From NCBI GenBank assembly GCA_964406895.1, contig CAYOTK010000004.1:26016-90015 (forward strand): a DNA stretch of 64,000 nt, given 5' to 3'. Position numbers and translations under genes: made by a program. Origin of the DNA: an uncultured Candidatus Saccharibacteria bacterium. GTDB lineage: Bacteria > Patescibacteriota > Minisyncoccia > Phycocordibacterales > PALSA-1337. A model generated the notes under the pieces. The model searched no databases, had not been told where the DNA came from, and worked only from the letters and a program-made list of their open reading frames with translations. This document shows, in pieces, positions 1-61,098 of the stretch (positions are counted from its first letter, which is position 1; each line of letters starts with the position of its first letter).

Positions 1-1236
1 CCCCATAGCGGGAAGACCGTCCTCATGGGTTTGCTTCGGGGCCTGTTGCCCCGGGACAAATTCATGGTTGCAGAGGCGGCACCTGATGGTGAAGGTATCA
101 CCGGATGGTCTGCCGAAGCGACGCAGGAGCTTGTCAAAGCGGTTCGCCGCAAGGGCAAGTTCCTGCCACAGTTCGTGGATTGGGTGTGCGCCTCGGTGCA
201 TAACTCCACGATGCCGATCACTCTCGTCGACTTGGGCGGAATGCTCTTGGACGATGAGGGAAAGTTCTCCGCCACGGGTGTCAGGCTGACAACGGAGAAT
301 GAACGAATCATGCGGGAATGCAGTCACTTGATCGTGATTGCGAACCCGAGCTACATGGAGTCGGCGGTGCCTACCTGGATCGCTGAAGCCAATCGTCTGG
401 GGGTCAAACCCTTGGCCATCCTCGAGTCGGTTCTTACGGGAGCTGATGATGAGATTGTAGCTGGGGGTGAACTCCCGATGCGAGCGCGTATCACGAAGCT
501 CGACCGGGAAAATCCTCCCCAATCCACAACCGCAAAGGTGGTCGTGGATTTGATCCTTTCACTCACAACAACGGAAGTCGTTGTGAAGGATGGTTCGGAA
601 GTCGCGGATGTGAATTTCCCGCGACTTGCCGAAACGCTCAACCTGCCGGTAAAAAACGGCGGGGCGGATCGCGACTGGCGACCTTCGGATCTTCCGAAAG
701 TACTGGCTGAAGCCAAAAAGCTTCTGGCCGGAAAATCGGAAGTGCGCCTTTGGGGAAACACTCCTCTCGGCGCACCGTACCATGTCCTCGCGGCAAATCT
801 GTCGCAGGAGGTTTGGTACGCTGATCCGAAAGTTCCGGGTGGCTATGTAGCTATTCCGGAAATGCCGGCCAGCACGGGAACACTCCTTGACTGGAAAGTC
901 GGGGAACGGGATGACAGCTCTCTCGTGGAGTTTGTCATTCCTGGGCAGGTGTTCAATGCGAACACTCTGCCCACACTCACCTTGCCGGAAGTGGACACTC
1001 GCAATGGTGTCGTAATTTCCGGCAAAGGACCACGTTGGCTCACCGGCGCAATCGCTCGGGCTTATGCTCGGGCAGGCGCCGCCTGGGTAGCGGTCTTTGA
1101 ACCGCGCGAGTCCAGCCGGATGCAGACTGACGGAAAGAAATGGTCGGAACACCATTCTGGCCAAGCTCCGGCAATTGTGGTCTACACGCGAGAGCGAGAC
1201 CACACCATCGGAACGATCATTCCGTTCAGTCTGTAA
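1..1236 (+). CDS. P-loop GTPase-like protein, paralog A (5' partial; continues upstream of window)
   Basis: Frame 1 is open from nt 1 and reads PHSGKTVLMG before the ATG at 25, so the Walker A/G1 lies at the window edge. ITLVDLGG is a G3-like DxxG motif. The N-terminus (PHSGK[ST]..L..LLP....FGAPDGE..W..EA.Q.LVK, hhhVDxGG) and the C-terminal block (GP.WL...IAR.YA.AGA.W.AVF.P.ES.R.Q...G.KWS..H) are homologous to ORF 7006..8715. Codon usage is GC-rich. Confidence 0.6.
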   Translation, partial: PHSGKTVLMGLLRGLLPRDKFMVAEAAPDGEGITGWSAEATQELVKAVRRKGKFLPQFVDWVCASVHNSTMPITLVDLGGMLLDDEGKFSATGVRLTTENERIMRECSHLIVIANPSYMESAVPTWIAEANRLGVKPLAILESVLTGADDEIVAGGELPMRARITKLDRENPPQSTTAKVVVDLILSLTTTEVVVKDGSEVADVNFPRLAETLNLPVKNGGADRDWRPSDLPKVLAEAKKLLAGKSEVRLWGNTPLGAPYHVLAANLSQEVWYADPKVPGGYVAIPEMPASTGTLLDWKVGERDDSSLVEFVIPGQVFNANTLPTLTLPEVDTRNGVVISGKGPRWLTGAIARAYARAGAAWVAVFEPRESSRMQTDGKKWSEHHSGQAPAIVVYTRERDHTIGTIIPFSL

Positions 1237-1370
1237 CAATTCAAAGGAATGGCAACTTCCTGATCCTTGATGGACAAATCGTTGCAGAAGCTTCGGAGAA
1301 GTGCTTCGGTTTTACTTCTCCACTTTATTCAACTCACGAATGGTTCGTGGGTTGACTGAGAAAGGTTTTC

Positions 1371-1871
1371 ATGAAAAAAGTTCTTGAGGCGATTGAGTTC
1401 GCTTTTTTGAAACACTTGGGCCAAGAGCGCCCAGGAGGTGAACCACAATTCGCACACGTGCTCCGAGTCGCCAAGTTGGCGGAGGAATGCGCGCAATGGC
1501 TGTCGCCAGAATCCGGTGAAGTTTTGGTCGTGTCGGAAATCCTCCACGATGTGTTGGAGGACACGCCGACGACGGACGCAGAAATCTGCAAGAAGTTCGG
1601 TGATGAGGTTGCCAAAATCGTCCGCGCTCTCTCGCATGAAAGCGAGGAGGAACCGGATGAGGTATATCTCCGCCGAGTAGCTCGGGGAGGTAAGATTGCA
1701 GTGTTAGCCAAACGGTTTGACCGACTGGACAACCTGCGATCGCTTGCCACAATGCCAGCGGAATTTCGCGAGCGAAAACTCGCGGAAGTTCGCTCGGCAC
1801 TTCCCATCTGGCGAGAGATCGATCCGGATGGAGCTTTGGAAATTGAGAAAGGAGTGGAGAGTTATGGATAA
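1371..1871 (+). CDS. Small HD-domain hydrolase, SpoT/Mesh1-like (small alarmone hydrolase-like)
   Basis: HLGQERPGGEPQFAHV...SEILHDVLEDTPTTDAEICKKFGDEVAKIV...VLAKRFDRLDNLRSL follows the RelA/SpoT hydrolase HD pattern block by block (H..Q.RKSGEPYI.HP / LLHDV(I/L)EDT / FG..VA.LV / KLADR.HNMR.L). It is 166 aa with no synthetase domain. Confidence 0.65.
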   Translation: MKKVLEAIEFAFLKHLGQERPGGEPQFAHVLRVAKLAEECAQWLSPESGEVLVVSEILHDVLEDTPTTDAEICKKFGDEVAKIVRALSHESEEEPDEVYLRRVARGGKIAVLAKRFDRLDNLRSLATMPAEFRERKLAEVRSALPIWREIDPDGALEIEKGVESYG

Positions 1872-2118
1872 CCGACCACTTTACGAACTCAAAATCAGAG
1901 CAACTTTTGTCCTTAGACTCCCCGAACCAGTTCGCGCTGAATTCGTGGAAATCGCGAGGGCAAAGTCTCCTTCGGCGAGTTTTGATCTCGCCCAGTTCGC
2001 CGCGCGAGCACGCGGAATTGTTAGTACGGAAGTCATTGCGATCGCAAAAGCTACGCGTTGGCTCTCAGTGATTCGCCGTGATCATGGCGATCAAGTGTTT
2101 GAACAGATTGTCGCTTAA
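1864..2118 (+). CDS. Ribbon-helix-helix (Arc/MetJ-like) DNA-binding protein
   Basis: The ATG at 1864 overlaps the HD gene stop (ATGGATAA), suggesting translational coupling. N-terminus MDNRPLYELKIRATFVLRLPEPVRAEFVEIARA matches the Arc-type beta-strand/helix signature (..R.P..L...L...A). It is 84 aa. Confidence 0.45.
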   Translation: MDNRPLYELKIRATFVLRLPEPVRAEFVEIARAKSPSASFDLAQFAARARGIVSTEVIAIAKATRWLSVIRRDHGDQVFEQIVA

Positions 2119-2136
2119 CGTGGTAACGGGGGTTTT

Positions 2137-2352
2137 ATGCCAAAGAAAAAAAAGATGCCCAACCGACGGATAAAGGTAAAAGGGTTCACATTGGAAGTAG
2201 TTTCTCCGAAATGTCCTTTTTCCGACGCTACGACGGAGGAGCGAGCAAAGGATCAGGCAGAAATGATTGCCAATGGAGGAATTCATCCTGCATGGTTCTC
2301 GGTTACAGCCGAAGACGTCCAACGCGAGTTAGATAAGGACAAGCTCAATTAG
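2137..2352 (+). CDS. Hypothetical small basic protein
   Basis: 71-aa ORF starting 19 nt after the RHH gene, same strand, with GC-rich codon usage. No recognisable motif. Confidence 0.3.
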   Translation: MPKKKKMPNRRIKVKGFTLEVVSPKCPFSDATTEERAKDQAEMIANGGIHPAWFSVTAEDVQRELDKDKLN

Positions 2353-2387
2353 GAGCACATCGCGCCACAACGCGAACAATTTCAATC

Positions 2388-2420
2388 GGCGAGTTTTTGT
2401 GGAAACTCGCCCACTTTTTT
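2388..2420 (+). terminator. Rho-independent terminator followed by an AT-rich promoter-like patch (to ~2470)
   Basis: GGCGAGUUU / AAACUCGCC stem followed by CACUUUUUU. Then cctataatatttgtttttttaaaattgtagg forms an AT-rich patch inside the otherwise GC-rich island, upstream of the MoxR gene. Confidence 0.45.
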
Positions 2421-2530
2421 GAGCCTATAATATTTGTTTTTTTAAAATTGTAGGCTCTTTGAGTAAACGCCACAAAAATGGCGACGGCTTCAAATAGGTG
2501 CGCCGGAATAAGCACCAGTGGAGAATCACA

Positions 2531-3742
2531 ATGAGTGATATCGTCCAATTGGGGATTGATCTCGCCCCCAAGGTGTCCGCTGTAATGACGGATGTCCTAA
2601 CGCGAAATCTCGGCCGTGAGGCAATTGTGCGGGCAACAATGCTCGCGCTCGTTTCGGGCAGACCGGCGTTTTTCCTGGGCAGTCCTGGGATCAACAAAAC
2701 CGGGACGGTGCAGGACATCGCCCGTCGGGTTGACGGTGCGGTGTTTTTTGACGCGCTCATGCCGACCATCGTGTCGGTTGAGCAACTGTTGGTGGAGAGC
2801 ACCTCCATCGTGGAGTCCCCGATAACTGATGGAGGTAAATCCATCAGCACCAGCGACAAGCTTGGGCGAGCAGCAAACGCGCACATTCTGTTCGCCGACG
2901 AGATTTGGAAAGCAGAACCTCGAGTTTTGCAGACCGTTTTGGACTTGGCGAAAGGCGACGGCGTTCGGCACGAGGGACGGATGATTAAAACCCCGCTTCT
3001 CGCTTTTGTGGCGGCCAGCAATGAGCTGCCGGATTCTGAAGGAAACCTCGGAGCACTGTGGTCACGAATGACCATTCGAGCCGAGGTGAAGTCCCTTGAC
3101 CGGGCCGGAAAAAAAAGCCTGGTCGCGACGCGATTGAACCGGCAACAGGCCGGCAAGTCAGCGCCGACAGGGGCGACTCTGACACTCGCTGAAGTGGAAA
3201 CGCTTCGCGAGGTTCGGCCGTTCGTGGAGGTTGGTGACGATATCGTCGAGATTGTACTCGACCTTTACCAATCGCTCCTTGACGGGGACAACGCCGGGTT
3301 CGCCTGGCTATGGGCCGACGACCGACGGTTCGGTCGTTGCATTGACGTTTTGCAGGCCAGTGCACTCCTTGACGGGAGAGCGCGAGTCGGCAAGCAGGAC
3401 CTTCGGGTTCTGGAGTTCTTGCTCTGGGACACCCCCGAGCAGATCCCCGTCGTCAAAAGCAAAATCGCCCCGCTCTGTCGGACACCACTGTCCGACGCGC
3501 AGGAGCTCGTAGACACACTCTTCGCTCCAGCGGGAGTGGTGGCGGAAGCGCTGGCTGGCGATCGGAACAAGATTGTTCCGGCCATCACCCAGTTTGAGGA
3601 GGCTGAGAAGGAACTCAGCCGGCTCGCGGGTGAGGCGAGTGGAACGGAAAAGGAGCAGATCGGCACGCTCCTCGCCAAAATTGCCGAGGAAAAACAGAAC
3701 GCGGTGGCGATCATACTTGGCGCCAAGCGTTGGAAAAAGTAG
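2531..3742 (+). CDS. MoxR-like AAA+ ATPase with atypical Walker A
   Basis: Start taken at the second ATG (MSDIVQLG), with GGAGA 8 nt upstream. Walker A is LGSPGINKTG (N replaces the conserved second G). Walker B is ILFADEIWKA. The MoxR sensor region DEI.KA.P.....LL....E......G......P..F..ASNELP parallels DEINRA...TQ.ALLEAM.E..V......-....F.VIATQNP. Confidence 0.7.
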   Translation: MSDIVQLGIDLAPKVSAVMTDVLTRNLGREAIVRATMLALVSGRPAFFLGSPGINKTGTVQDIARRVDGAVFFDALMPTIVSVEQLLVESTSIVESPITDGGKSISTSDKLGRAANAHILFADEIWKAEPRVLQTVLDLAKGDGVRHEGRMIKTPLLAFVAASNELPDSEGNLGALWSRMTIRAEVKSLDRAGKKSLVATRLNRQQAGKSAPTGATLTLAEVETLREVRPFVEVGDDIVEIVLDLYQSLLDGDNAGFAWLWADDRRFGRCIDVLQASALLDGRARVGKQDLRVLEFLLWDTPEQIPVVKSKIAPLCRTPLSDAQELVDTLFAPAGVVAEALAGDRNKIVPAITQFEEAEKELSRLAGEASGTEKEQIGTLLAKIAEEKQNAVAIILGAKRWKK

Positions 3743-3754
3743 AAAGGATCGGAA

Positions 3755-5491
3755 ATGCAAACGAAAGCCAGCCCGCTCATGCGGCAGGAGTTGCAGAAAC
3801 TCCTGGTCACGGATGCGGACGCTTTCACGGCGCTCCGCTTCCTGCGTCACCGCGAGCGCACCCCAGCGCTTTCGGAATTGGAAAACCAAGGAGGAAACGA
3901 GGTGCCCGGTTTTGCCGGAGCGCTTTGTGACCTCTACCACTCACTGTGGACGGAGACACCCAAGGTCAAGGAAGAAATTCCGGCTGACCGGCGGTTCTTC
4001 GCGGAGATTCTTCGGGGGGCGCTGGCATCGTCAGCGTTTGATGGTCTCCACGCGCAGACACAGTACTCAGACATCAAGTCGGTACTCGGCACCCTTTCCA
4101 TGGGTGATGCAGTGCTGGCAACGATGTCTCCGGAGGAAAAGAAAAATCTCCAAGACACTGCTAGTGCGCAGAAAACAGCGGATGAAGCCGAGGACGAGGC
4201 CAAACAGGCCGAGAACGAAGCTGATTCTGCTGAAGCACTCGCCCAGATGGTGGAGCAATCCGCCGGACAGGGCGAGAGCAGTGAGGGCGGACAAGAATCA
4301 TCCGGCGATCCTTCGGGAGAAGCCGAGGGTGGTTCTGGAGCGCCCAAATCAGGCAGTCCTTCAGGATCGCCAAGTGGTGGTTCACACGGAGCAGTTAGCG
4401 GAATGACGCCCGATGAAGCGCAGGCACTTGCGAACGAACTCGCTCGACAAGCGAGGGAGGCGCGTGCCAAAGCCAACTCGGCACGCGAAACTGCGAACAG
4501 CGCCAAAGAGGTCGCCGAATCCATCGCCAACCAACTTCTGGGGCAACCCGGAAGCGAGGAGGCGATGGAGAGAGCGAAAGATCTGGCGCGTCGTGGATTA
4601 GCCGCTGCTCAAAAGGCCCAAGCGAAGGTTGAGGAAGTATCCAAGACCATTGACTCGTGGGGGCTTGAGGAAGGCGAGCTCGTCCAGATGGGCATTCCGG
4701 AGGCCATGGGGCTTCTAGAAAAAATGCGCCAGAGCACGGCGCTCAAGAAGTTTGCTCAACTCCTGGGCCGAATCAAAAAGATTGCCGCTCGAAAAGCGGC
4801 GTCCGATGATAAAGCCGATGGAGTGCGAGTCACGAAGCCGGAAACGGGTCATGATATCAAAAGAGCGCTTCCGAGGGAGCTCACTGCTCTCTCGCACCCA
4901 TCGCTTCGTTTCGGCGCACTGACGCGCTGGAGCCGAGGAGAACTCGCTCTTCGGGGCGAGGAATCAAAGAGGAAATTGGGCGAGGGGCCGGTCGTGGTCT
5001 GCGAAGACTCGTCAGGCTCTATGGACGGGGTTAAGCAACAGTGGGCAAAGGCTGTAGTTTTAGCACTGGCCCATTACGCAAAGCTTCGTAACCGATCGTT
5101 CGCGTGGATCATGTTTGACACTGCTATCCAGCGGAGTCGCATTTACACTCGCGGGCGATTAACGCCCAAGGACCTTTTGGAAATCGCCGAGTCACGCTCA
5201 GGAGGTGGGACGAATTTTGAAATCCCCCTTCGCGAAGCCGTCAAAGTGATTCGTGGTGCTGGCCTTAAGAAAGCCGACATTGCGTTCATCACCGACGGGG
5301 ATTGCGCGATTTCGGACGAATTCGTTCGGGAGTTTGGTGGGGTCAAGAAGGCATTGGAAGTCAACGTGTTCGCAGTTCTCTGCGATGTTGGCCATACTGC
5401 CGAGGCGACCATTGCAAAATTCTCGGACAGAATTGAACAGGCTTCATCTTTCAACGAGGATGAAGCGGAACAATTTTTCCAAAAACTCTGA
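3755..5491 (+). CDS. von Willebrand factor A (vWA) domain protein with acidic/coiled-coil N-terminal region
   Basis: Starts 12 nt after MoxR, with AAAGGA upstream. The C-terminal vWA domain has a complete MIDAS: VVVCEDSSGSMDG (DxSxS), SRSGGGTNF (T) and AFITDGD (D). The N-terminal ~380 aa are Ala/Glu/Ser/Gly-rich low-complexity and coiled-coil. Confidence 0.75.
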   Translation: MQTKASPLMRQELQKLLVTDADAFTALRFLRHRERTPALSELENQGGNEVPGFAGALCDLYHSLWTETPKVKEEIPADRRFFAEILRGALASSAFDGLHAQTQYSDIKSVLGTLSMGDAVLATMSPEEKKNLQDTASAQKTADEAEDEAKQAENEADSAEALAQMVEQSAGQGESSEGGQESSGDPSGEAEGGSGAPKSGSPSGSPSGGSHGAVSGMTPDEAQALANELARQAREARAKANSARETANSAKEVAESIANQLLGQPGSEEAMERAKDLARRGLAAAQKAQAKVEEVSKTIDSWGLEEGELVQMGIPEAMGLLEKMRQSTALKKFAQLLGRIKKIAARKAASDDKADGVRVTKPETGHDIKRALPRELTALSHPSLRFGALTRWSRGELALRGEESKRKLGEGPVVVCEDSSGSMDGVKQQWAKAVVLALAHYAKLRNRSFAWIMFDTAIQRSRIYTRGRLTPKDLLEIAESRSGGGTNFEIPLREAVKVIRGAGLKKADIAFITDGDCAISDEFVREFGGVKKALEVNVFAVLCDVGHTAEATIAKFSDRIEQASSFNEDEAEQFFQKL

Positions 5492-5502
5492 AAGAGGAAA
5501 TT

Positions 5503-6156
5503 ATGGAAAATATCGTTGTAACGCTTCGAGCTGACCGGGGCAACAAGTTCGATGAAGACGGTCAGTGTATCGGGACCCATGAAAGGTCAATCGTCTTCAT
5601 GCCACGCGAGGTCAAGCCTGACCAAGTTGTCCGCGTCCGACTCATACCGATCATGGATCGAATGACGGGGAAAGAAAGAGTGGACAAAGGTGGCAGAGTT
5701 ATGTACCGCGCCGAACTCGCACCAGCGGAACTGCCGAGGAAATGCGAGGAAGACATTGCAAGGCAAGCAAAAGCCTTGCGGCAAGGCAAACCCTTTCCGA
5801 AGGATCAAGGCGAGGCACTCGCCAAATCCATATTTGGTAAGCGATTGGAACGTACTGACCACAAGTGGTACTACTTTTTCGCTGATGCCATCTTGGGGTC
5901 GCGGTTTTCACCCGCTGCCCTATTGATCTTAGAGGGGATGCCGATGTCTTCTGGTAGCTCATACGATGAGCTTATGGGGTGGTTGATCGGTAAAACTCGC
6001 TGGGGTTACAACTGGTACCACTTCCGAGAATCAGGAAAGATCGGAAAGGATGAGGTTCCGGAGTTTCCAGAAATAGAGCTCCGGACACTTATCGCGCGCC
6101 TTGAAAAAGGCGAATGGGTCATCGCAGACCTCTTGGTTAAGGAGGAACCGCGATGA
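5503..6156 (+). CDS. Hypothetical protein with TRAM-like (OB-fold) N-terminus; candidate vWA-MoxR-associated partner
   Basis: Starts 11 nt after the vWA gene. N-terminus VVTLRADRGNKFDEDGQCIGTHERSIVFMPREVKPDQVVRVRLIPI resembles the TRAM pattern (G.G.....g.vvFV....PGE.V.v.I). The rest is unassigned. Confidence 0.4.
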   Translation: MENIVVTLRADRGNKFDEDGQCIGTHERSIVFMPREVKPDQVVRVRLIPIMDRMTGKERVDKGGRVMYRAELAPAELPRKCEEDIARQAKALRQGKPFPKDQGEALAKSIFGKRLERTDHKWYYFFADAILGSRFSPAALLILEGMPMSSGSSYDELMGWLIGKTRWGYNWYHFRESGKIGKDEVPEFPEIELRTLIARLEKGEWVIADLLVKEEPR

Positions 6157-6191
6157 AAGGTTTTTGGTGCTGCAACACCAGTGGTTAAACC

Positions 6192-6235
6192 GGACGAATT
6201 TTTGCAGAAATTCGTCCACTTTATTCAATTCATAA
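6192..6235 (+). terminator. Hairpin after the TRAM-like gene (possible terminator)
   Basis: GGACGAAUUU / AAAUUCGUCC 10-bp stem, followed by ACUUUAUUCAAUUC, which is only moderately U-rich. Confidence 0.35.
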
Positions 6236-6327
6236 CTTCGGTTACGGATTGATAGAGTTTCAGCTCGAACCGCGTCCGCAGGCGCAACAATTTGCGGAAA
6301 AATTGCCCTTGAAAGGAGGGCTAACAG

Positions 6328-6774
6328 ATGAATTACAAAATCATCCCCGGATCCGTCGGGGTCCGGAAGTCGTTTCAGGTTACCTGCGGACTGCGCGTCG
6401 GGTACGACGCAGCCGCGGTGACTCACACCGGCGAGGAGGCCGTCGAGTCCGTCCTCGAACAATTGAAGTTCCGTGCGGCTGCGGGACTGCCGTACCTAAC
6501 CGGTACAATCACAACCGGAGAGGTCGTGTATGCATGGTCGGATGGGCCGGGCAAGGCCGGCGGCGGGCACGAGCCCGTCATCCGGTACGAGGGAGAAGTC
6601 AACCCCCTGTACAACAAGAATCTTCTCGAGAATCACGACGAGGTCGTCGCGATCTTGAACGAGCTCGGCATCGCCCTCGGAGCGGCGCTCGGGCAAACGC
6701 GGATCTACCTGGCCTACGACGGCCAGACGTGGATCCTCGAGGCGGAGAAGGCGGTTACCCCGACGGGTAACTAA
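6328..6774 (+). CDS. Hypothetical protein
   Basis: 148-aa ORF on the same strand within the island, with GGAGGG upstream. No recognisable motif. Confidence 0.35.
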   Translation: MNYKIIPGSVGVRKSFQVTCGLRVGYDAAAVTHTGEEAVESVLEQLKFRAAAGLPYLTGTITTGEVVYAWSDGPGKAGGGHEPVIRYEGEVNPLYNKNLLENHDEVVAILNELGIALGAALGQTRIYLAYDGQTWILEAEKAVTPTGN

Positions 6775-7005
6775 TTTCTCCAAAGGTTGTGTGAACCTTC
6801 AAAACATTCTGCGTCCCGCGTGGCGCAAAAAAATTTGGTTAACGGTGAGTGTATGCGGACACCCACAAAACTTTCAGCACCGGTCGGGTTGATCGGTGCT
6901 GGACTTTATTGAGTCCGTCCGCTTTTAGCGGGTTGATTCAAAAAGTTAAAGACAGCGACGAGAGTCGCCCGAGCCAGTCGGGTACTGGCATGAAAGGATA
7001 GCGGA

Positions 7006-8715
7006 ATGAAAAATATCCGCCGAGTAGTGGTTTGCGGACCCCCGCATTCGGGAAAGTCTGTGTTCCTAGCCAATCTCCAACGGCTATTGCCGGTTGAGCA
7101 TCACATGCTCATTTTCGGCGCTCCCGACGGTGAGTGGCATTGGAGCAACGAGGCCAACCAGAGCCTCGTCAAAAACCTGCGGGAAAAGAAAGGCTTCTCG
7201 CAGGACTGGTGCCGTCAAATCGTAACAGCGATCCAGAGTGCCGATCAGAAATTGGTACTCGTGGATACGGGTGGCAAGCGATTGCCACCGAACGATGAGA
7301 TCTTCTCGTCGTGCGATGGTTTCATCATTATTTCCTCATCGCCGGAGGAAATGATTGAGTGGCGGAAGTTCGGCGAGAGTTTCGGATGCCAGTGCTTGGC
7401 CGAGCTTGACTCGGTTTTGCATGGAACGTCAGAGCTCTATCCAGACCGCAAGGACGGCATCATCCGCGGTCAGATATGCGGTCTCGAGCGCGGGAAGACC
7501 ATTGAGTCGCCTGTGATGGACGCGGTGGCCAGTCGGCTTTGCGAAGTCATCAAAGCTAACGCTGAAATGACCAAGGCCGAACTTCTCGCCAACATCAATG
7601 GCGTGAAGTTGGTAGACCATCTGGGAATCACAGATCGCTCGGATCCGTATCTCGGAGTGAGGCCCTGGCACACGGCTCCTGCACTCAAACTCACGGCCGT
7701 GGCGCGCCGACTGGAAATCGTGCGAATCTGGAATGTCCGCACAAGTTTCCTGTCCTGCGCCTTCGCCTCGATGCTCCCAGGAAAAGTCCAGCTCTTCGGC
7801 GTGTCCGAGGGGTATGTGGAATTACCTGAAGTCGTTCCGGCTGGGAACGCTTCCGGCGATGGGGTGGAATGGGAAGTTACCGAACTGGCCGAGTATACCT
7901 TAGTGGAATTCCGCAAAACACGATTCTTCACTAAGGAACTGCTGGCGAGCGTGGTACCGCCCGTAGTCAATTCTCGCAAGGGGGTTGTGCTGTCTACGGA
8001 CGGTCCGCCCATCTGGCTAGACGCGACGATCGCAAGGTCGTATGCAAAAGCTGGCGCACCATGGATTGCTGTCTTCGTTCCGGTTGAGTCCGGACGAGTC
8101 CAGCCGTCTTTGGACGGCCAGAAATGGAGTGATGTGCACCCACCAGACGGACCGTGCGTGATAATTTACGGTCCGGAAAATCGGCTGGGAGAAATCATTC
8201 CCGTGCCGATTGCCCTGCTTAAATGGCAAGGGGGTGGACGTAAGTGGCGACTCGGGTCGGGCGAGCCAGTCGTGGATCGACAGAACAGCCACCTTGCCAC
8301 GCACGGCACGGTTTTGCCGTTCGTGGGTGAAGCCTTGCTCCAGATTCAATCCGGAGGACAAGACTTCATCGCCGAAGAAGTAGGTTTTGGCGAAGCCATC
8401 GGGCAGACGATTTGTGTCGCCACCCGCGAGGATGACGACATCGTTTTCGCCCAGCGGCCAAACCGAGCCGGACTCACACGGTTCGTGAAAGGTCGCGAGC
8501 CGGAGTCGTGCTCGACGGTTGTGGTTTGTCTAAAGCGAGCGCGGGAGGGCGGATACATCCTCCTTACTGCGTACATTGGTAGACGCACACCGGCCGAACC
8601 GTGGGACATGGAATGGGCAACGGATCAGTCCGTGCCTTTCTGGAATTCCCATGCTCTGATTTGGGGGCACGAATCAACAATACCAGGAACTGAAACGAAG
8701 GTTTGTTCTTGGTGA
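7006..8715 (+). CDS. P-loop GTPase-like protein, paralog B
   Basis: G1 is VVVCGPPHSGKS and G3-like is LVLVDTGGK. The N-terminal domain and a C-terminal block (GPPIWLDATIARSYAKAGAPWIAVFVPVESGRVQ...GQKWSDVH) are paralogous to ORF 1..1236. An additional ~170-aa C-terminal extension is present. Confidence 0.65.
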   Translation: MKNIRRVVVCGPPHSGKSVFLANLQRLLPVEHHMLIFGAPDGEWHWSNEANQSLVKNLREKKGFSQDWCRQIVTAIQSADQKLVLVDTGGKRLPPNDEIFSSCDGFIIISSSPEEMIEWRKFGESFGCQCLAELDSVLHGTSELYPDRKDGIIRGQICGLERGKTIESPVMDAVASRLCEVIKANAEMTKAELLANINGVKLVDHLGITDRSDPYLGVRPWHTAPALKLTAVARRLEIVRIWNVRTSFLSCAFASMLPGKVQLFGVSEGYVELPEVVPAGNASGDGVEWEVTELAEYTLVEFRKTRFFTKELLASVVPPVVNSRKGVVLSTDGPPIWLDATIARSYAKAGAPWIAVFVPVESGRVQPSLDGQKWSDVHPPDGPCVIIYGPENRLGEIIPVPIALLKWQGGGRKWRLGSGEPVVDRQNSHLATHGTVLPFVGEALLQIQSGGQDFIAEEVGFGEAIGQTICVATREDDDIVFAQRPNRAGLTRFVKGREPESCSTVVVCLKRAREGGYILLTAYIGRRTPAEPWDMEWATDQSVPFWNSHALIWGHESTIPGTETKVCSW

Positions 8716-11039: not shown

Positions 11040-11214
11040 AAGTTATATTTCTACTACTCACTTTTTCTACAAAATTTATTACAATACATTCATGACCTAA
11101 TAAATCTCTTATGAGAATGATCTGAAAAAATCTTAACACCGGAACAAATCAGTAGTGCCTGCACCGAGCGAGGAACAAACCCTCATCTTAGGCACAAACT
11201 TCAACGAATCGAGG

Positions 11215-11285
11215 TGCGGGCAGGGAGAATCGAACTCCCGTCTACACATTGGAAGTGTGTTATTCTACCACTAAACCATGCCCGC
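11215..11285 (-). tRNA. tRNA-Gly (anticodon UCC)
   Basis: The reverse complement reads GCGGGCAUGGUUUAGUGGUAGAAUAACACACUUCCAAUGUGUAGACGGGAGUUCGAUUCUCCCUGCCCGCA. It has a 7-bp acceptor, a GUUU/GAAU D-stem, an ACACA/UGUGU anticodon stem with loop CUUCCAA, and T-arm GGGAG-UUCGAUU-CUCCC. CC is encoded after the discriminator but the final A is not. Confidence 0.8.
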
Positions 11286-11363
11286 AATATTCAGTTATTT
11301 AAGAACAAAGTCAATACTAGCAATTATTTTTCGATATAACAAGACACTAATTTATCCAAAAAA

Positions 11364-11804
11364 TTATTTTTTATTTTCGTTTTCACTCTTTCCATCAACA
11401 ATCACCTCTTTGATCTCATCAATCTCCTTTTTCATCTCCTTGATTGTTGTTCTGATCTGCCCTATCTGCATTTCTTCCTCTTCTATTTCCTTCTCAGTTT
11501 TGTCCGTAACCTTCTTTTGCCCCTTCAAACCACTAATCAATATGGTGTCCCCTATAAAATAAGAAACAAACAATCCGGTAGCAAGCAAAACAATCAACAC
11601 CAAGATAAGACTTATAGGTTCATAGAATATGATGCCCCACCACCCTCCTTTGGCCTGAAGTATGTCGGCAGTATGCCAAACACCTCTCCAAAACAAAACA
11701 ATAGCCGTACCCCCTATCAACGTATAAAGAATAGGATAACGACTGAGGTGAACCCTGATCACATCCTCCAATTTATCAAAGAAATTTACTACTCTTTTTA
11801 TCAT
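11364..11804 (-). CDS. Hypothetical small membrane protein with Lys/Glu-rich C-terminus
   Basis: 146-aa ORF with two hydrophobic segments (LIGGTAIVLFW, ISLILVLIVLLATGLFV). AT-rich codon usage consistent with the host. Confidence 0.4.
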   Translation of the reverse strand: MIKRVVNFFDKLEDVIRVHLSRYPILYTLIGGTAIVLFWRGVWHTADILQAKGGWWGIIFYEPISLILVLIVLLATGLFVSYFIGDTILISGLKGQKKVTDKTEKEIEEEEMQIGQIRTTIKEMKKEIDEIKEVIVDGKSENENKK

Positions 11805-11831
11805 TTTTATGATTAATTTACTTAATATTCT

Positions 11832-11907
11832 TGGTCGGAGCGCCGGGATTCGAACCCGGAGTCACCTGTACCCAAAACAGGTATGTTAGCCGTTACACCA
11901 CGCTCCG
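11832..11907 (-). tRNA. tRNA-Pro (anticodon UGG), CCA encoded
   Basis: The reverse complement reads CGGAGCGUGGUGUAACGGCUAACAUACCUGUUUUGGGUACAGGUGACUCCGGGUUCGAAUCCCGGCGCUCCGACCA. Anticodon loop is UUUGGGU, T-arm is CCGGG-UUCGAAU-CCCGG, and the 3' CCA is genomically encoded. Confidence 0.8.
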
Positions 11908-11949
11908 TATGCAATGATATTAGCATAATATATCGAAATTGCACACGAA

Positions 11950-12348
11950 TCACAAAATAATATCCTGAATCCAATTGATATTCCCTGCCCTATTATCAGA
12001 ATCGATGTGAATTGCCAAAACGTGAAAATAAAATCTGATCTCATCACTTATTTTATTTTCATTCAAGTATGTTTCTATCATTCTGCGAATATGCTTCACC
12101 TTGAAACCATGAACATTCTCTTCCGGCCTATGGATGTCTGTTACATTTCCTATATTAAAAGTCGTGCTTTTTACCTCGAAGAAATGTATAGCACCATCCT
12201 TGAAACCAACAATATCTAATTCTCCCCATTTACGTTGGTAATTTCTAGCTATAATAGAAAAATTATTTTTCTTCAAGAAATCGCAAGCAATATCTTCTCC
12301 AATCTTTCCAAAGTATTTATTTTGTTTTTTGTTTGCATTATTTAACAT
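11950..12348 (-). CDS. YraN/UPF0102 family endonuclease-like protein
   Basis: 132-aa protein with GELDIVGFKDGAIHFFEVKS, matching the UPF0102 core (GE.DI.....L.FVEVK.R). Confidence 0.6.
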   Translation of the reverse strand: MLNNANKKQNKYFGKIGEDIACDFLKKNNFSIIARNYQRKWGELDIVGFKDGAIHFFEVKSTTFNIGNVTDIHRPEENVHGFKVKHIRRMIETYLNENKISDEIRFYFHVLAIHIDSDNRAGNINWIQDIIL

Positions 12349-12692
12349 AAATGTCCTGACTTTTAAACTTGAATAATAATAGTACGGCCCAAATTAGCCA
12401 CATTCACAGTATTCACAAATAATAGGACCAAAAAACACGAATATTAGCCATATTTCCTGTCTTTTATCACCACTATTAACAGACTTATCCACAGTTTGTC
12501 CTTTCAGCCCACGAATTTAAGCCGTATTTATCCGACTTATATGTGTATAAAGTACTGTCGTTTATACTTTACAATTCGTACTAATATTCCGCTCTAATAA
12601 AGCATTGTCTAACAAAAAACTACACACTTATTGTGCCTGCACCGAGCGAGGTGCTAAATCGAAATTATTTACTAATCACGAAAAAATTGAGG

Positions 12693-12763
12693 TGCGGGTA
12701 GGGAGAATCGAACTCCCACCTCGTCCTTGGCAAGGACGCGTCCTACCACTAAACGATACCCGC
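12693..12763 (-). tRNA. tRNA-Gly (anticodon GCC)
   Basis: The reverse complement reads GCGGGUAUCGUUUAGUGGUAGGACGCGUCCUUGCCAAGGACGAGGUGGGAGUUCGAUUCUCCCUACCCGCA. Anticodon loop is UUGCCAA. It is a paralog of the tRNA-Gly(UCC) and shares part of its 3' flank. Confidence 0.8.
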
Positions 12764-13001
12764 GGATTTCAACAAAAGGCATTATAGCCTATAATTTCAA
12801 AATTTGAAAGTTTTTACAAAACACTCTTGCTTCGCCAAAGGCTTCGCAAGACGAGTGCGTTTTTATAACTGTCCTACTACGCTCCTCACTCCGTTCGGAG
12901 CTTCGTAGGACTGCTTCGCGAAAGTGTATTATTGAGAATGCAATTAAACAAGTACTTGTACTGCGAAGCGACCCCAGCGATTAGCTGGGGTCGCGAAGCA
13001 G

Positions 13002-13075
13002 TACGCCCGGCAGGACTCGAACCTGCAACCCCTTGGTTCGAAGCCAAGTACTCTATCCAATTGAGCTACGGGCGC
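13002..13075 (-). tRNA. tRNA-Arg (anticodon UCG)
   Basis: The reverse complement reads GCGCCCGUAGCUCAAUUGGAUAGAGUACUUGGCUUCGAACCAAGGGGUUGCAGGUUCGAGUCCUGCCGGGCGUA. Anticodon loop is CUUCGAA, T-arm is GCAGG-UUCGAGU-CCUGC, with a G1-U72 wobble. CCA is not encoded. Confidence 0.7.
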
Positions 13076-18134: not shown

Positions 18135-18261
18135 TCATCGAACACCACACCCTGCACATGAATTTTTGTGAGCAATCCAAATGAGGTGGTTACGCATGAC
18201 TATTGCATACGCACTTGTTTGCTCACAAAAATTCATGTGCAGGGTGTGGCGTGAAGAAAAA

Positions 18262-19209
18262 CTATTTCTTCTTATTATGAAACTTCTTATGAATATTCCT
18301 AAGCTCACTGTCTGTAACGTGAGTATAAATCTGAGTGGTTCCAATATTTGCATGACCAAGAAGCATTTGCACAGAACGCAAATCGGCACCATTTCTGAGT
18401 AAGTCAGTAGCGAAACTATGACGTATGACGTGTGGAGTAACTTTCTTCGAAATTCCAGCCTTAATAGCATAGTGTTTTATGATTCTTTCAACAGATCTTG
18501 TCGTCAACCTCGAAGCCTCCATATTGTTTTTCTTATTCGAAATCTGAACAAACAAAGCTTCTTCCATGTCATCTCTTTTGTCGAGATATTGCTTCAACCA
18601 TTTTTTGGCTTCATCAGAAAGAAAAACTACCCTTATCTTATCTCCTTTACCTCTGACAGAAAGCTCATCCAGCTTCATGTTGATTTCACGGGGCAGGGCA
18701 CAGAGCTCTGAAACACGCAAACCAGTCGAAAAAAGAAGTTCCATGATGGTTCGATCACGAAGGCCTCTCAATTTCGTTGTGTCGGGTGCATCCAATAATC
18801 GGCCTAATTCCTCGATTGTTATAAGATCCAGCGACCTTTCAGGAACTTTTGCCAATTCTATTCTCTCTGGCGGTAGTGATTTCACGCTCATTCTGGCAAG
18901 ATATTTGAGAAATGCTCTAAGAGCAATGAGATAGTAATTCTGAGTCTTCTTCTTCATGGTACCTGAAGCTAATCCTTTTGTTTTGCTTCCTTCTTGTCGA
19001 TTTAACCATAACCTAAACTCCCTAACCACATTATCTGTTATGTCATTTGGTGATTTCACCTTGGTAAATGATATGAAACGCGTCAAATATCGATCATAAT
19101 TTTCAACAGTCTTGAGTCCGCGACCTTTCTCTATCTCTATGTACTCCAAAAACTGTTGTTTCATGTCTTGAATATTGTGCGACATGAATACATTGTAGCA
19201 ATTATCCAC
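18262..19209 (-). CDS. xerC: Tyrosine site-specific recombinase, XerC/XerD family
   Basis: C-terminal catalytic motifs HVIRHSFATDLLRNGADLRSVQMLLGHANIGTTQIYTHV (R..H..R..LLGH...Y). N-terminal SAM-like domain (FLEYIEIEKGRGLKTVENYDRYL). Start could be any of the first three ATGs. Confidence 0.8.
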   Translation of the reverse strand: MDNCYNVFMSHNIQDMKQQFLEYIEIEKGRGLKTVENYDRYLTRFISFTKVKSPNDITDNVVREFRLWLNRQEGSKTKGLASGTMKKKTQNYYLIALRAFLKYLARMSVKSLPPERIELAKVPERSLDLITIEELGRLLDAPDTTKLRGLRDRTIMELLFSTGLRVSELCALPREINMKLDELSVRGKGDKIRVVFLSDEAKKWLKQYLDKRDDMEEALFVQISNKKNNMEASRLTTRSVERIIKHYAIKAGISKKVTPHVIRHSFATDLLRNGADLRSVQMLLGHANIGTTQIYTHVTDSELRNIHKKFHNKKK

Positions 19210-19249
19210 ATTTCAAACACACTTGACAAAAAAATGTGTGGTGGTAGTA

Positions 19250-19710
19250 TCTTACGTCAGATGACCTTTGGTAATGGTGAGGGCGCAGAACACACCACTC
19301 GTGGTGTGCAATACGCTTTGCATCGAAGGGTTGTCTGTGGCCTAACATCGAAAAAAAAGGCCACTATTGGAGGAAAGCCTATGAACAGTCCGCCCTGTGC
19401 GCTTCTCATGCGCACCAATGGAACGACCAAGAGTTCGGCGACATCCCGGGCGACCTGAAGCCCCGACCGGCCAACGGTACGCAGAACATCAACCAAAGAA
19501 AGGGGGTAGCGTGGAACGACTCGCAAAAATAGTCATCGCCCGAATGGTGGTGATTGAATGGCGGGCCAACACGGCCTTCACCTAACCAAACCTAGGGAAC
19601 CACAACAATTTCGCGGCCCTCCCTACCGCCCCGACCAGGCCGGTGAGCTAGTAAGAGCACGTACCCCACGTCGCTCGAGTTGGCTCACCGGCCGAATCTT
19701 TTTATATACC
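19250..19710 (+). ncRNA. GC-rich (~57%) candidate structured RNA (unidentified)
   Basis: A 460-nt non-coding GC island between the Xer gene and rpsO. It ends with an 11-bp stem (GGCCGGUGAGC...GCUCACCGGCC) followed by CGAAUCUUUUUAUAU. Contains a GAGGAAAGCC and a GUAAGAGCAC motif, and CGCAAAAAUAGUC resembling the tmRNA resume-codon context. No tRNA-like 3' domain was seen. ORFs in the track here are GC-biased and probably spurious. Confidence 0.3.
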
Positions 19711-19774
19711 TAGATAATGCAGATTTTAATACAGAAAGTTGCAAAAAAACCTCATTCATGCTATCATTTCCCAC

Positions 19775-20041
19775 ATGTTAACCACACGACAAAAGACAAA
19801 AGTAATCAAGGAAGTTGCTGTACATGACAAAGATACAGGCTCTTCTGAGGTTCAAATAGCTATTCTTACAAAGAGAATCACAGAATTAACCGACCATTTG
19901 AAGAAACACAAGAAAGACAATCACTCTCGACGTGGCCTTCTAGGCATGGTTGCAGACCGTCAAACACATTTGAATTATCTCAAACAATCTCATCCAAGAA
20001 GATACAGTACAGTAGTGAAGAAACTGGAGATTAAGAAATAA
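19775..20041 (+). CDS. rpsO: 30S ribosomal protein S15
   Basis: MLTTRQKTKVIKEVAVHDKDTGSSEVQIAILTKRITELTDHLKKHKKDNHSRRGLLGMVADRQTHLNYL is the S15 signature. Start taken at the second ATG. Confidence 0.85.
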   Translation: MLTTRQKTKVIKEVAVHDKDTGSSEVQIAILTKRITELTDHLKKHKKDNHSRRGLLGMVADRQTHLNYLKQSHPRRYSTVVKKLEIKK

Positions 20042-56269: not shown

Positions 56270-56755
56270 ATGAAAACTCACGTTACTAATTCACTGGAAG
56301 AAACTGAATCCTTGGCTCGTCTTTGGCTCGAGAATGTTTCGGCGAAATATGCTGGTATTGATAGCGCTCTTGTTGTGACTCTTTCTGGTCATATCGGAGC
56401 GGGCAAGACCGCTTTCGTGAATATGGTTGCCAAGATTTGTGGCGTTGAGGAGTCTGTGACAAGTCCAACTTTCGTTATCATGAAAATATATGAGTTGAAA
56501 GGTGGGGTGCGAAAGAGCGGGGAAGCGCCGGAAGTTCCAAATAATTGGAAGCGCCTGGTTCATATAGATGCATATCGCCTAGAAAAAGCCGAAGAATTCG
56601 AAATTGTTGGTTTGGAACAGCTGGTCGCGGACAAAAATAATTTGATTATGATCGAATGGCCAGAGAATGTTGCGGAGGCGCTCGCAGGTATTGAGCCTTT
56701 GGAAAAGATCAATTTCACTGTGATGGGTGAAAAGTCTAGGAGTGTGGAGTTTTAG
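56270..56755 (+). CDS. tsaE: tRNA threonylcarbamoyladenosine biosynthesis protein TsaE (YjeE ATPase)
   Basis: P-loop LSGHIGAGKTAFV and SPTFVIM motif. 161 aa. Confidence 0.75.
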   Translation: MKTHVTNSLEETESLARLWLENVSAKYAGIDSALVVTLSGHIGAGKTAFVNMVAKICGVEESVTSPTFVIMKIYELKGGVRKSGEAPEVPNNWKRLVHIDAYRLEKAEEFEIVGLEQLVADKNNLIMIEWPENVAEALAGIEPLEKINFTVMGEKSRSVEF

Positions 56756-56899
56756 AATATCACATTCATTTGACAATCACGCAATTATTATTGTAGTCTG
56801 ATTTCAGACCACCCCTGATTGCACCTGACCCTGTTTCTTGGCCCTGCAAATGAGAGGGTAAGAGAAATATGGACGGCACCATGACGGCGTGGAAGACAT

Positions 56900-57307
56900 A
56901 TGAATAGAAACGATCAATTCGGCCCCATCTTTGCCTTGGCGGCCCGGTTCGCCTCCGAAATCGCTGGCATGAATCTGCCCACTGAGGTAATTCAGAAAGC
57001 GAAAGAGCAAAAGAATCACCCTCTCTGGACGGCGGTAAACAGAGCGTTGTCGCCGGATGGTAACCCCAATCCGATCAGCGATGAGACCTCCCTGGTCCTG
57101 TCGAGACGCTTCACTCTTTTCATCGATTTTTTGGGATTGCCTGAAGAGGTGGCCGTGGCTGCGACAAAAAATGATCACCCGCTCTGGGGCGCCGTGAGAA
57201 AGGCGCTGTTGCCCGAAGAGATGTCGATGTCACCGGGTCTTGCCCTTAAGGAAAAGGGTGGAGACAAAAAGGTCGGGCGCTTCATTGTTTTGGATAATTT
57301 GTGGTGA
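56900..57307 (+). CDS. Hypothetical protein with internal tandem repeat (GC-rich ORF)
   Basis: 135 aa. Internal duplication KNHPLWTAVNRALSPD / KNDHPLWGAVRKALLPEE. It lies in a ~600-bp ~52% GC patch within AT-rich DNA. Confidence 0.35.
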   Translation: MNRNDQFGPIFALAARFASEIAGMNLPTEVIQKAKEQKNHPLWTAVNRALSPDGNPNPISDETSLVLSRRFTLFIDFLGLPEEVAVAATKNDHPLWGAVRKALLPEEMSMSPGLALKEKGGDKKVGRFIVLDNLW

Positions 57308-57380
57308 ACACGGGCAAAAGTGCACCTGTGAAGATCTGTCGTATCGGTCAGACCTTTTTGTTCTTTTGTCCTTTTTTCAT

Positions 57381-57418
57381 CCCTCCGCCTGTTTGCAGGC
57401 GGAGGGGTTTTCTTTTTG
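57381..57418 (+). terminator. Strong rho-independent terminator
   Basis: CCCUCCGCCUG-UUUG-CAGGCGGAGGG (11-bp GC-rich stem) followed by GUUUUCUUUUUG, immediately before the polA start. Confidence 0.65.
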
Positions 57419-57431
57419 CTACAATATACCC

Positions 57432-60862: not shown

Positions 60863-61024
60863 GAATAAAATTATAGCAGAATAGTGTCTTACTACGCTCG
60901 CTACGCGAGCTTCGTAGGACTGCTTTCCTGCTCCGCCAAAGGCTACGCAGGACAAGCGCGTTTTATGCATTATTGTGCCTGCACTGCGAAGCAACCCCAG
61001 CGATTAGCTGGGGTTGCGAGGCAG

Positions 61025-61098
61025 TGCGCCCAGTTGGATTCGAACCAACGACCCACTCCTTAAAAGGGAGTTGCTCTACCAGGCTGAGCTATGGGCGC
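61025..61098 (-). tRNA. tRNA-Lys (anticodon UUU)
   Basis: The reverse complement reads GCGCCCAUAGCUCAGCCUGGUAGAGCAACUCCCUUUUAAGGAGUGGGUCGUUGGUUCGAAUCCAACUGGGCGCA. Anticodon stem is ACUCC/GGAGU with loop CUUUUAA. CCA is not encoded. Confidence 0.8.

Follow-up and report, generated by a model that had tools for sequence, protein, structure and literature searches.

A 64,000-nucleotide (nt) stretch of an uncultured Candidatus Saccharibacteria genome, referred to here as the window, carries a GC-rich island at positions 19250-19710, between the gene for a Xer-type tyrosine recombinase (xer) and rpsO, the gene for ribosomal protein S15. With moderate confidence, and judging from comparative sequence analysis, we read the island as an independent, accessory and fast-evolving unit, a short structured mRNA encoding a micropeptide, which would belong to an unannotated, lineage-specific family located only between xer and rpsO in Paceibacteria-like Patescibacteria. 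The anatomy of the unit, its homology to the units of relatives, its restriction to this locus, the coding-type periodicity of the family and the dispensability of the unit are established by the observations presented below. The product would be an abundantly made micropeptide with a fast-diverging body.

The transcription unit in the window

The position between the Xer gene and rpsO given in the earlier note, a model's description of the window, was confirmed (Table 1), in a neighbourhood consisting of xth, xer, rpsO, NYN and pnp. The GC content of the island was 55.3%, compared with 38.7% for positions 9001-64000 of the window, and 200-nt windows ranged from 0.55 to 0.59 in the island and from 0.31 to 0.45 in its flanks; the island is thus GC-rich as described before, at slightly less than the ~57% given then. 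The Logan assembly SRR12487045 (locus L083) was 100% identical to window positions 18220-19926, and this independent, identical copy indicates that the island is no local assembly artefact. A self-blast of the window detected no second copy.

The unit begins with a sigma-70-like promoter (P1), which did not figure in the earlier note and was added by this analysis. A CTTGACAA promoter occupied the same aligned place in 16 of 17 homologous units from relatives, described in the next section, and was missing from the loci where the gap between xer and rpsO is short. Directly after the -10 box, the relatives share a 5' motif, cAGAUGAUCUUU, which closes the 5'-terminal stem-loop. In minimum-free-energy (MFE) folds of the leaders this motif formed a long stem with sequence lying 40-80 nt further downstream, and in 14 of 15 members the first 26 nt paired more strongly with the rest of the leader than with a shuffled version of it (mean z = -1.8). 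The partner arm varied together with the 5' arm, as in GAUGAUCUUU/GAGAUCAUU, UUGAUCCUUGC/UGUGAGGAUCA and AGAUGACCUUU/GAAGGGUUGUCU. A stable stem at the extreme 5' end usually shields bacterial mRNA from 5'-end-dependent decay. The string UUGAUC(C/U)U in the 5' motif (window 19258-19269, ~17 loci) resembles the 5' end of 16S rRNA, AGAGUUUGAUCCUGGCUCAG; the likeness is probably a coincidence, and no rRNA model matched.

Simple hairpins comparable to the second hairpin of the window were present upstream of the Shine-Dalgarno sequence in most members, and a purine-rich AAAGG or GGAG preceded the homologous open reading frame (ORF) in all of them, so that a Shine-Dalgarno sequence and a start codon stand at a conserved position throughout the family. 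The second purine-rich motif recurred in the relatives as AGAAAGG (11/17 units) and as AAGAAAGG (9/17 units); the ORFs after it were not conserved, and short ORF 2 had no homologue in the other units. At the 3' end, the 11-bp stem and U-tract reported previously on the plus strand were both located: the GC-rich stem has 11 perfect base pairs (arms 19638-19648/19683-19693), or 14 counting G-U pairs, and is followed by the U-tract on the transcribed strand, the arrangement of an intrinsic terminator. Hairpin and U-tract ends of a like kind were found in the relatives. A promoter of rpsO itself follows, and its pattern TTGC(A/G)-N17-TGCTAnnAT was detected ahead of rpsO in 72/72 loci, with or without a unit.

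Taken in order, these parts suggest how the unit would work. P1 would start an RNA at about position 19257, the first ~80 nt of which would form the 5'-terminal stem-loop and presumably protect the transcript from 5'-end-dependent decay. The second hairpin and an A-rich linker would expose the strong Shine-Dalgarno sequence, and ribosomes would then translate the short ORF, which is strictly conserved only at its N-terminus (Met-Asn/Lys-Ser/Gly-Pro-Pro). A GC-rich tail with the second Shine-Dalgarno-like motif would come next, and the terminator would end the transcript ahead of the promoter of rpsO. Expression is probably high, because a near-consensus promoter, a strong Shine-Dalgarno sequence, C-ending codons, the 5' stem and a strong terminator are combined in a single unit.

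Table 1. Positions, strands and supporting details of the island's parts and of its flanking genes in the window.
Feature	Positions	Strand	Details
Tyrosine-recombinase ('Xer') gene	18262-19185	minus	Pfam Phage_integrase, 3e-45
Promoter P1 (sigma-70-like)	19223-19250	plus	-35 TTGACA 19223-19228; 16-nt spacer with upstream TG; -10 TAGTAT 19245-19250; consensus scan 10/12
5'-terminal stem-loop	19259-19336	plus	cAGAUGACCUUU (19258-19269) pairs with GAAGGGUUGUCUG (19325-19337), inner hairpin enclosed; MFE folds
Second hairpin	19337-19364	plus	7-bp stem GUGGCCU/AGGCCAC, A-rich loop; in MFE and centroid structures
Shine-Dalgarno GGAGG	19369-19373	plus	7 nt before ATG 19381; strong
Short ORF 1	19381-19458	plus	MNSPPCALLMRTNGTTKSSATSRAT (MNSPPCALLMRTNGTTK...), TGA stop; M-N/K-S/G-P-P family
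Second purine-rich Shine-Dalgarno-like motif	19497-19507	plus	AAGAAAGGGGG
Short ORF 2, GTG start	19511-19585	plus	VERLAKIVIARMVVIEWRANTAFT; contains tmRNA-like CGCAAAAATAGTC at 19522-19534
Intrinsic terminator	19638-19703	plus	Outer stem 19638-19651/19680-19693, inner hairpin, U-tract UCUUUUU 19697-19703
rpsO own promoter	19739-19767	plus	TTGCAA-17-TGCTATCAT; downstream of terminator, context outside the unit
rpsO	19775-20041	plus	PF00312

Homologous units at the same locus in relatives

A scan with the S15 protein, limited to one genome per species, yielded 80 loci from Paceibacteria/'Taylorbacteria'-like Patescibacteria. The gene order xer(-), rpsO(+), NYN-domain gene(+) was conserved over 72 loci, with a Xer identity of 60-78%. 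A short gap between xer and rpsO (33-170 nt) was present in 45 loci, and a long one (250-1165 nt) in the other 27. Short gaps contained two promoters only, the -10 box of xer and the TTGC(A/G)-N17-TGCTAnnAT promoter of rpsO. By blastn, the long gaps could not be aligned with the window, and among themselves they aligned only at their edges; a tblastx comparison among the long gaps revealed no protein conservation beyond the DNA matches, and the coding signal described in the next section came only from start-motif anchoring and periodicity.

When read side by side, about 17 long-gap loci and two metagenome loci displayed an architecture in common with the window. It begins with an additional, near-consensus CTTGACAA...TGCTAnnAT promoter, followed by the 5' motif, a hairpin or two, an A-rich segment containing AAGAAAGG or GGAGG, and an ORF beginning M-N/K-S/G-P-P. 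After GC-rich sequence come a long hairpin, likewise GC-rich, with its U-tract, and finally the ordinary rpsO promoter. Units ranged from ~100 to >600 nt in length and had a GC content of 42-50% in genomes of 33-48%. In 45/72 relatives there was nothing at this position.

L002 is a 969-bp contig from another run that was retrieved by an exact-protein look-up of S15. Its S15 protein is identical to that of the window, and blastn and alignment revealed that it lacks window positions 19265-19611 (347 nt). It keeps the 5' end of xer, P1 and the first ~10 transcribed bases (96% identical), as well as the terminator and the rpsO promoter (85% identical); those differences within the terminator that fall at paired positions all preserve pairing (G-U to G-C, and G-C to G-U). 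Since promoter, 5' motif and terminator are all retained, the 347-nt difference represents an internal deletion in L002 and not an insertion in the window. This deletion, together with the patchy occurrence of the unit among the closest relatives, indicates that the unit is dispensable. The BLASTN comparison of the segment proposed earlier was run against the 80 related loci and returned similarity to L002 only. The assemblies of two near-identical strains (L001 and L084) break at 19735-19772, which would fit allele heterogeneity.

These comparisons also bear on a foreign or mobile origin, namely a horizontally acquired GC-rich fragment, an integron-like cassette or a Xer-exploiting element lodged beside the recombinase gene. 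We regard such an origin as very improbable. The GC content does look foreign, the island adjoins a tyrosine recombinase gene, presence or absence is polymorphic (L002), and other, unrelated small genes were found in the gap in L021, L079 and L082, besides the second units of L030 and L035. Against this, L002 shows an internal deletion and no empty site, and the units share homologous ends and ORF start, which implies descent at this locus. No flanking inverted or direct repeats were detected, the two promoters of the short gaps leave no space for dif or att sites, the recombinase is the syntenic, conserved Xer, and no other copy was found in the window, among the loci or by scanning viral and metagenome sequences; a pseudo-protein made of the three island frame translations likewise gave no confirmed relatives among viral and Joint Genome Institute (JGI) metagenome contigs. 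The decayed horizontally transferred fragment that had been offered as an alternative in the earlier note is thus not the best fit, the unit being homologous to same-site units in relatives, though decay is visible in this species. An invertible or phase-variable switch operated by the adjacent recombinase was also considered and rejected, there being no flanking inverted repeats.

Some long gaps were more complex. The unit was duplicated in tandem in L044, L053 and L058: L044 has two MN(S/G)PP ORFs on one transcript (3431-4000), and L053 (3127-4000) and L058 (2909-4000) each have two full promoter-ORF-terminator units in series. The first short ORF of L044 (L044a, ~3605-3720) carries an in-frame UGA where L035 has UGC (Cys), and a family-like Pro-Gly-Pro-Gly continues in frame past it; the UGA could mark a nonsense-mutated copy or stop-codon read-through.

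L035 (3700-4000) and L030 (3686-4000) contain a different GC-rich unit of ~220 nt, 81% identical between them. This unit, which sits between an MNSPP-type unit (or xer) and rpsO, includes a promoter-like site of its own and a terminator (GGGGGCCTCAGAAYGAGGCCCCC, then a T-tract) and lacks any conserved ORF; it is a candidate small RNA. L086 and L036 were 67% identical over 419 nt, from ~140 to 540 nt past the ORF start (...GCUGUCUUACAYCC...UUGACGCAAURGUGUGACCAAAAGU...), with ORF tails that could not be aligned; this alignment starts within the 3' part of the units and may extend into the terminator, the rpsO promoter and rpsO, in which case the conserved 3' RNA domain would measure less than 419 nt. 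The stretch could hold an internal promoter.

A short ORF with a conserved start and a variable body

The start of the short ORF proved to be specific to the locus. The pattern ATGAAN-(AGY|TCN|GGN)-CCN-CCN was sought on both strands of the window and of 82 loci (1.285 Mb in all) and had nine matches, all of them on the plus strand and upstream of rpsO. Eight lay within the 19.4 kb of plus-strand xer-rpsO gaps, where ~0.14 would be expected by chance, and the ninth (L045) lay upstream of rpsO on a truncated contig. A metagenome scan with the pattern ACTTGACAA-N(134-164)-ATGAAYAGTCCNCC returned seven matches, three of them real (L086 = L089, and L090; two distinct sequences) and all three between xer and rpsO; the other four were unrelated GC-rich or chance matches.

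Within the ORF, Pro-Pro at codons 4-5 (3-7 in divergent members) was the sole invariant part. Past codon 5, the tails had 50% C and 10% A at third codon positions, and their GC content was 68% at third positions (GC3) and 47% at first positions (GC1). The triplet GGC was distributed over the three frames as 30:3:14, with 30 in frame. In a leave-one-out test based on position-specific composition, the reading frame outscored the other frames in 16 of 18 members, often by 10-50 bits, and composition was flat in the longest stop-free stretches of the antisense strand. Ser codons varied among AGU, AGC and UCG, and Pro codons varied in their third position.

Insertions and deletions tended in the same direction. 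The flanks of L090 and L028 are 84-86% identical, and their ORF tails could not be aligned by blastn; the peptides, 25 codons apart in length, nevertheless agree in frame at both ends (MNSPPNTNIV... and MKSPPKNIGTNV...; ...GISASRAAYS and ...SISAAGAACLGTQ). In L053 and L058, RNTEYPD.P and PSTY are common in frame across an 11-residue gap found only in L053, as read by eye from the peptides with no alignment. Periodicity, in-frame indels and synonymous variation together constitute a reading-frame signature for the family, and at that level the conserved short ORF does not agree with the earlier view of the island as non-coding. The body of the ORF diverges faster than the flanking non-coding parts.

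The tails are 8-58 residues long. Ser, Thr, Gly, Asn, Pro and Ala abound in them, and beyond the N-terminus the recurring features are one to three Cys and loose motifs (K-N-x-x-F/S-T/x-C-x-G-P-G). Ten family peptides had no matches in NCBIfam or Pfam; a collection of 15 billion predicted proteins contained just one of the ten, as an unnamed entry. A Pfam search with the long ORFs of the island on both strands gave nothing, and literature searches on small ORFs, structured RNAs and leader peptides of candidate phyla radiation (CPR) bacteria brought up nothing on this element.

The opposite view, that the island is a structured non-coding RNA, of a trans-acting or housekeeping type too diverged for Rfam and with incidental ORFs, appears quite unlikely to us. 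It draws on the GC enrichment of the units in AT-rich hosts, on plus-strand folding (z = -4.0 against shuffled sequence), on the 5' stem conserved with compensating partners, on the L086/L036 3' domain conserved with no conserved ORF, and on recurring GGA/GGAG purine-rich motifs. The minus strand, however, folds almost equally well (z = -3.15), and as both strands outfold their shuffles the z-score alone is weak evidence. Moreover, the body cannot be aligned between relatives with 84-86% identical flanks, unit length varies several-fold, most relatives have no unit, a conspecific strain carries an internal deletion of it, and translation is indicated by the 3-nt periodicity and by indels that keep the frame.

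Known RNA families gave no support to this view either. Rfam 15 at gathering thresholds found five tRNAs only in the whole 64 kb; with permissive filters, none of 4227 families matched at E<=10 over 701 nt (19100-19800), and 18 related long-gap loci gave no matches. ARAGORN reported five tRNAs in the window, with no tmRNA (transfer-messenger RNA) and no tRNA-like domain. The covariance-model check suggested in the earlier note was therein carried out, with no match to tmRNA, RNase P, 6S, signal recognition particle (SRP) RNA or group I/II introns even at E<=10; S15 leaders, riboswitches and large ornate RNAs likewise gave none.

A tmRNA (RF00023 and the permuted alpha, beta and cyano forms) was rejected: there is no tRNA-like domain and no covariance match, and the supposed tag region is deleted in L002. 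A tmRNA would be expected to be universal and single-copy, which does not agree with the loss of 19265-19611 in L002 or with the 45/72 relatives that have no unit. RNase P RNA of types A and B was rejected as well, with no RNaseP_bact_a/b, archaeal or nuclear match at E<=10 and a wrong order of motifs. The island resembles both RNAs in its size (~450 nt) and in being GC-rich in an AT-rich genome, and it has short strings like CR-I and J11-12 of RNase P RNA and one like the segment before the resume codon of tmRNA; it differs from both in having no covariance or ARAGORN match and no tRNA-like domain, and in being dispensable in a conspecific strain.

The three strings quoted in the earlier note were all found, at 19370-19379 (GAGGAAAGCC), 19651-19660 (GTAAGAGCAC) and 19522-19534 (CGCAAAAATAGTC), and each has another explanation. 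The RNase P-like GAGGAAAGCC is the Shine-Dalgarno sequence plus spacer, 7 nt before the conserved ATG; the RNase P-like GTAAGAGCAC lies inside the terminator hairpin; and the tmRNA-like CGCAAAAAUAGUC lies inside short ORF 2, an ORF that is not conserved. With the Rfam and ARAGORN searches negative, 347 nt deleted in a near-identical strain and most relatives devoid of a unit, the housekeeping RNA proposed from the sequence did not hold. What remained of the candidate structured RNA was a discrete plus-strand unit with promoter, terminator and conserved 5' leader structure, for which neither a non-coding nor a housekeeping nature was supported. This removes a false lead, as the island is no missing tmRNA or RNase P of a CPR bacterium.

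The invariant prolines raise another alternative, in which the short ORF is a regulatory leader. Pro-Pro at codons 4-5 would make its translation dependent on elongation factor P (EF-P) or on prolyl-tRNA, and the position of the ribosome would set the downstream RNA fold, deciding between a stop at 19638-19703 and read-through into rpsO-NYN-pnp, or setting the lifetime of the RNA. The Pro-codon leaders mgtL and mgtP of Salmonella work by stalling-type regulation. The family shares with such leaders and attenuators, and with the coupling through EF-P (PMC5021804), invariant consecutive Pro codons near the start of a short ORF. In Escherichia coli, polyproline stalling uncouples translation from transcription and alters termination (PMC5021804), a precedent for a leader of this kind.

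We judge this alternative unlikely. In its favour, only M-N/K-S/G-P-P is conserved and tail length and sequence are free, so that a short ORF with conserved, potentially regulatory codons is indeed present. The unit is always co-oriented with rpsO and directly upstream of it, as proline-codon leaders are with their operons, and GC-rich hairpins and an intrinsic terminator follow the Pro-Pro codons. Just past the stop codon, ACCGGCC (19467-19473) copies part of the 3' arm of the terminator and could pair with its 5' arm. On the other side, a conserved promoter dedicated to rpsO follows the terminator in 72/72 loci, so that the gene need not depend on read-through, and 45/72 genomes have no unit; both observations speak against a classical attenuator. 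The distance from ORF to terminator is long and variable (100-300+ nt), a search by eye found no alternative terminator or antiterminator pairing conserved across members, and codon-optimised periodic tails (50% C at third positions) would be superfluous for a pure stalling sensor.

A micropeptide mRNA finds its closest parallels among small-protein genes on stand-alone structured mRNAs, including dual-function small RNAs such as SgrS/SgrT and RNAIII/hld. Like these, the unit would be a short independent transcript with its own promoter, an intrinsic terminator and a structured leader, and it has a strong Shine-Dalgarno sequence before an ORF of 10-60 codons that gene callers miss. In contrast to the described small-protein families, to which it has no sequence relation, its members conserve a five-residue N-terminus alone, have a body that diverges faster than the flanks, and reach a GC3 of 68% in AT-rich hosts; unlike in dual-function small RNAs, there was no sign of a base-pairing target.

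Polymorphic signalling or antimicrobial peptide precursors, such as pherotype-type loci and those of ribosomally synthesized and post-translationally modified peptides (RiPPs), offer a further comparison. The likenesses are a conserved N-terminal part, a hypervariable body, signs of high expression, a Ser/Thr/Gly/Asn/Pro-rich composition and, in many members, one to three Cys towards the C-terminus. Leaders of such precursors are usually at least 15 residues long, whereas the island family conserves five residues only; it also differs in having no adjacent gene for a modifying enzyme, transporter or receptor (the neighbours being xth, xer, rpsO, NYN and pnp) and no family match.

Several observations weigh against a micropeptide mRNA. 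In the window copy, the ORF displayed no clear periodicity (frame 0 scored 0.6 bits and frame 2 scored 0.9 bits), and there was no close intact homologue for comparison (L083 is identical and L002 deleted); the UUCGGC motif lies in frame 2 in the window and is in frame in L060, L011, L035 and L024. The window copy may make no family-like peptide. ORF lengths of 8-58 residues are near the stop-codon expectation for GC-rich sequence, and some circularity enters the codon argument because the start pattern fixes variable positions and divergent members were hand-picked by eye. The 3' region shared by L086 and L036 is partly better conserved than the ORF tail, which leaves room for an RNA-level function of the 3' part; a purely non-coding RNA there is unlikely. 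Finally, no recognisable signal sequence or domain was found in the peptide, and no partner gene among its adjacent neighbours. The UGA of L044a, the L002 deletion and the patchy distribution suggest that family members are often decaying, and the window copy may itself be frameshifted or decaying.

A bolder proposal, which we put forward as a doubtful possibility, is that the family represents a previously unrecognised class of strongly expressed hypervariable micropeptides, occupying a fixed site, keeping only MNSPP, outpacing the surrounding non-coding DNA in the divergence of the body, and being lost repeatedly. Members of such a class might possibly act as strain-specific signal or host-interaction peptides of episymbionts, or as a sensor of Pro-Pro translation linked to the RNA-metabolism operon rpsO-NYN-pnp.

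Small proteins and post-transcriptional control are, to our knowledge, almost unexplored in Patescibacteria. The present case illustrates that a GC-rich island in a reduced, AT-rich genome can be a tiny coding unit skipped by annotation pipelines. The fixed locus, MNSPP start, hypervariable body and frequent loss or decay make it a compact, testable case of a fast-evolving micropeptide in this group. If the Pro-Pro start were regulatory, the unit would represent, in a minimal genome, a natural leader that senses EF-P or proline.

Other features of the locus and the window

A perfect DnaA-box 9-mer, TTATCCACA, was located at 19202-19210, between the start of xer and the promoter of the unit, and was present in four loci (window, L002, L030 and L035). 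DnaA-box-like near-matches were enriched only about twofold in the xer-rpsO gaps, and no switch in GC skew was detected at the locus. A replication origin, terminus or dif site was rejected on these two grounds and because the short gaps are too small for dif.

The first 8.7 kb of the window (1-8715) form a block of 55% GC abutting the remainder at ~38%. This block encodes two Csx3-domain proteins (25-1236 and 7006-8715), a MoxR-like AAA+ ATPase (2498-3742) and a VWA-domain protein (3755-5491), and it contained no rRNA and no Rfam match; it has the appearance of a defence-type island acquired by horizontal transfer, or of a chimeric join.

A second GC-rich island (56780-57420, 52-56% GC) lies between a gene of ~160 codons (56270-56755) and a putative DNA polymerase I gene. 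Its features include a TTGACA promoter of its own, a strong terminator (CCCTCCGCCTG...CAGGCGGAGGG, then a T-tract) and a 135-codon ORF (56900-57307) with the internal repeat (N/D)HPLW(T/G)AV(N/R)(R/K)AL. It had no Pfam match and only chance-level Rfam matches, and its sequence is unrelated to the 19.3-kb unit.

Four of the five tRNA genes of the window form a cluster on the minus strand (11213-13075; Gly-TCC, Pro-TGG, Gly-GCC and Arg-TCG), and the fifth is a tRNA-Lys gene at 61024-61098.

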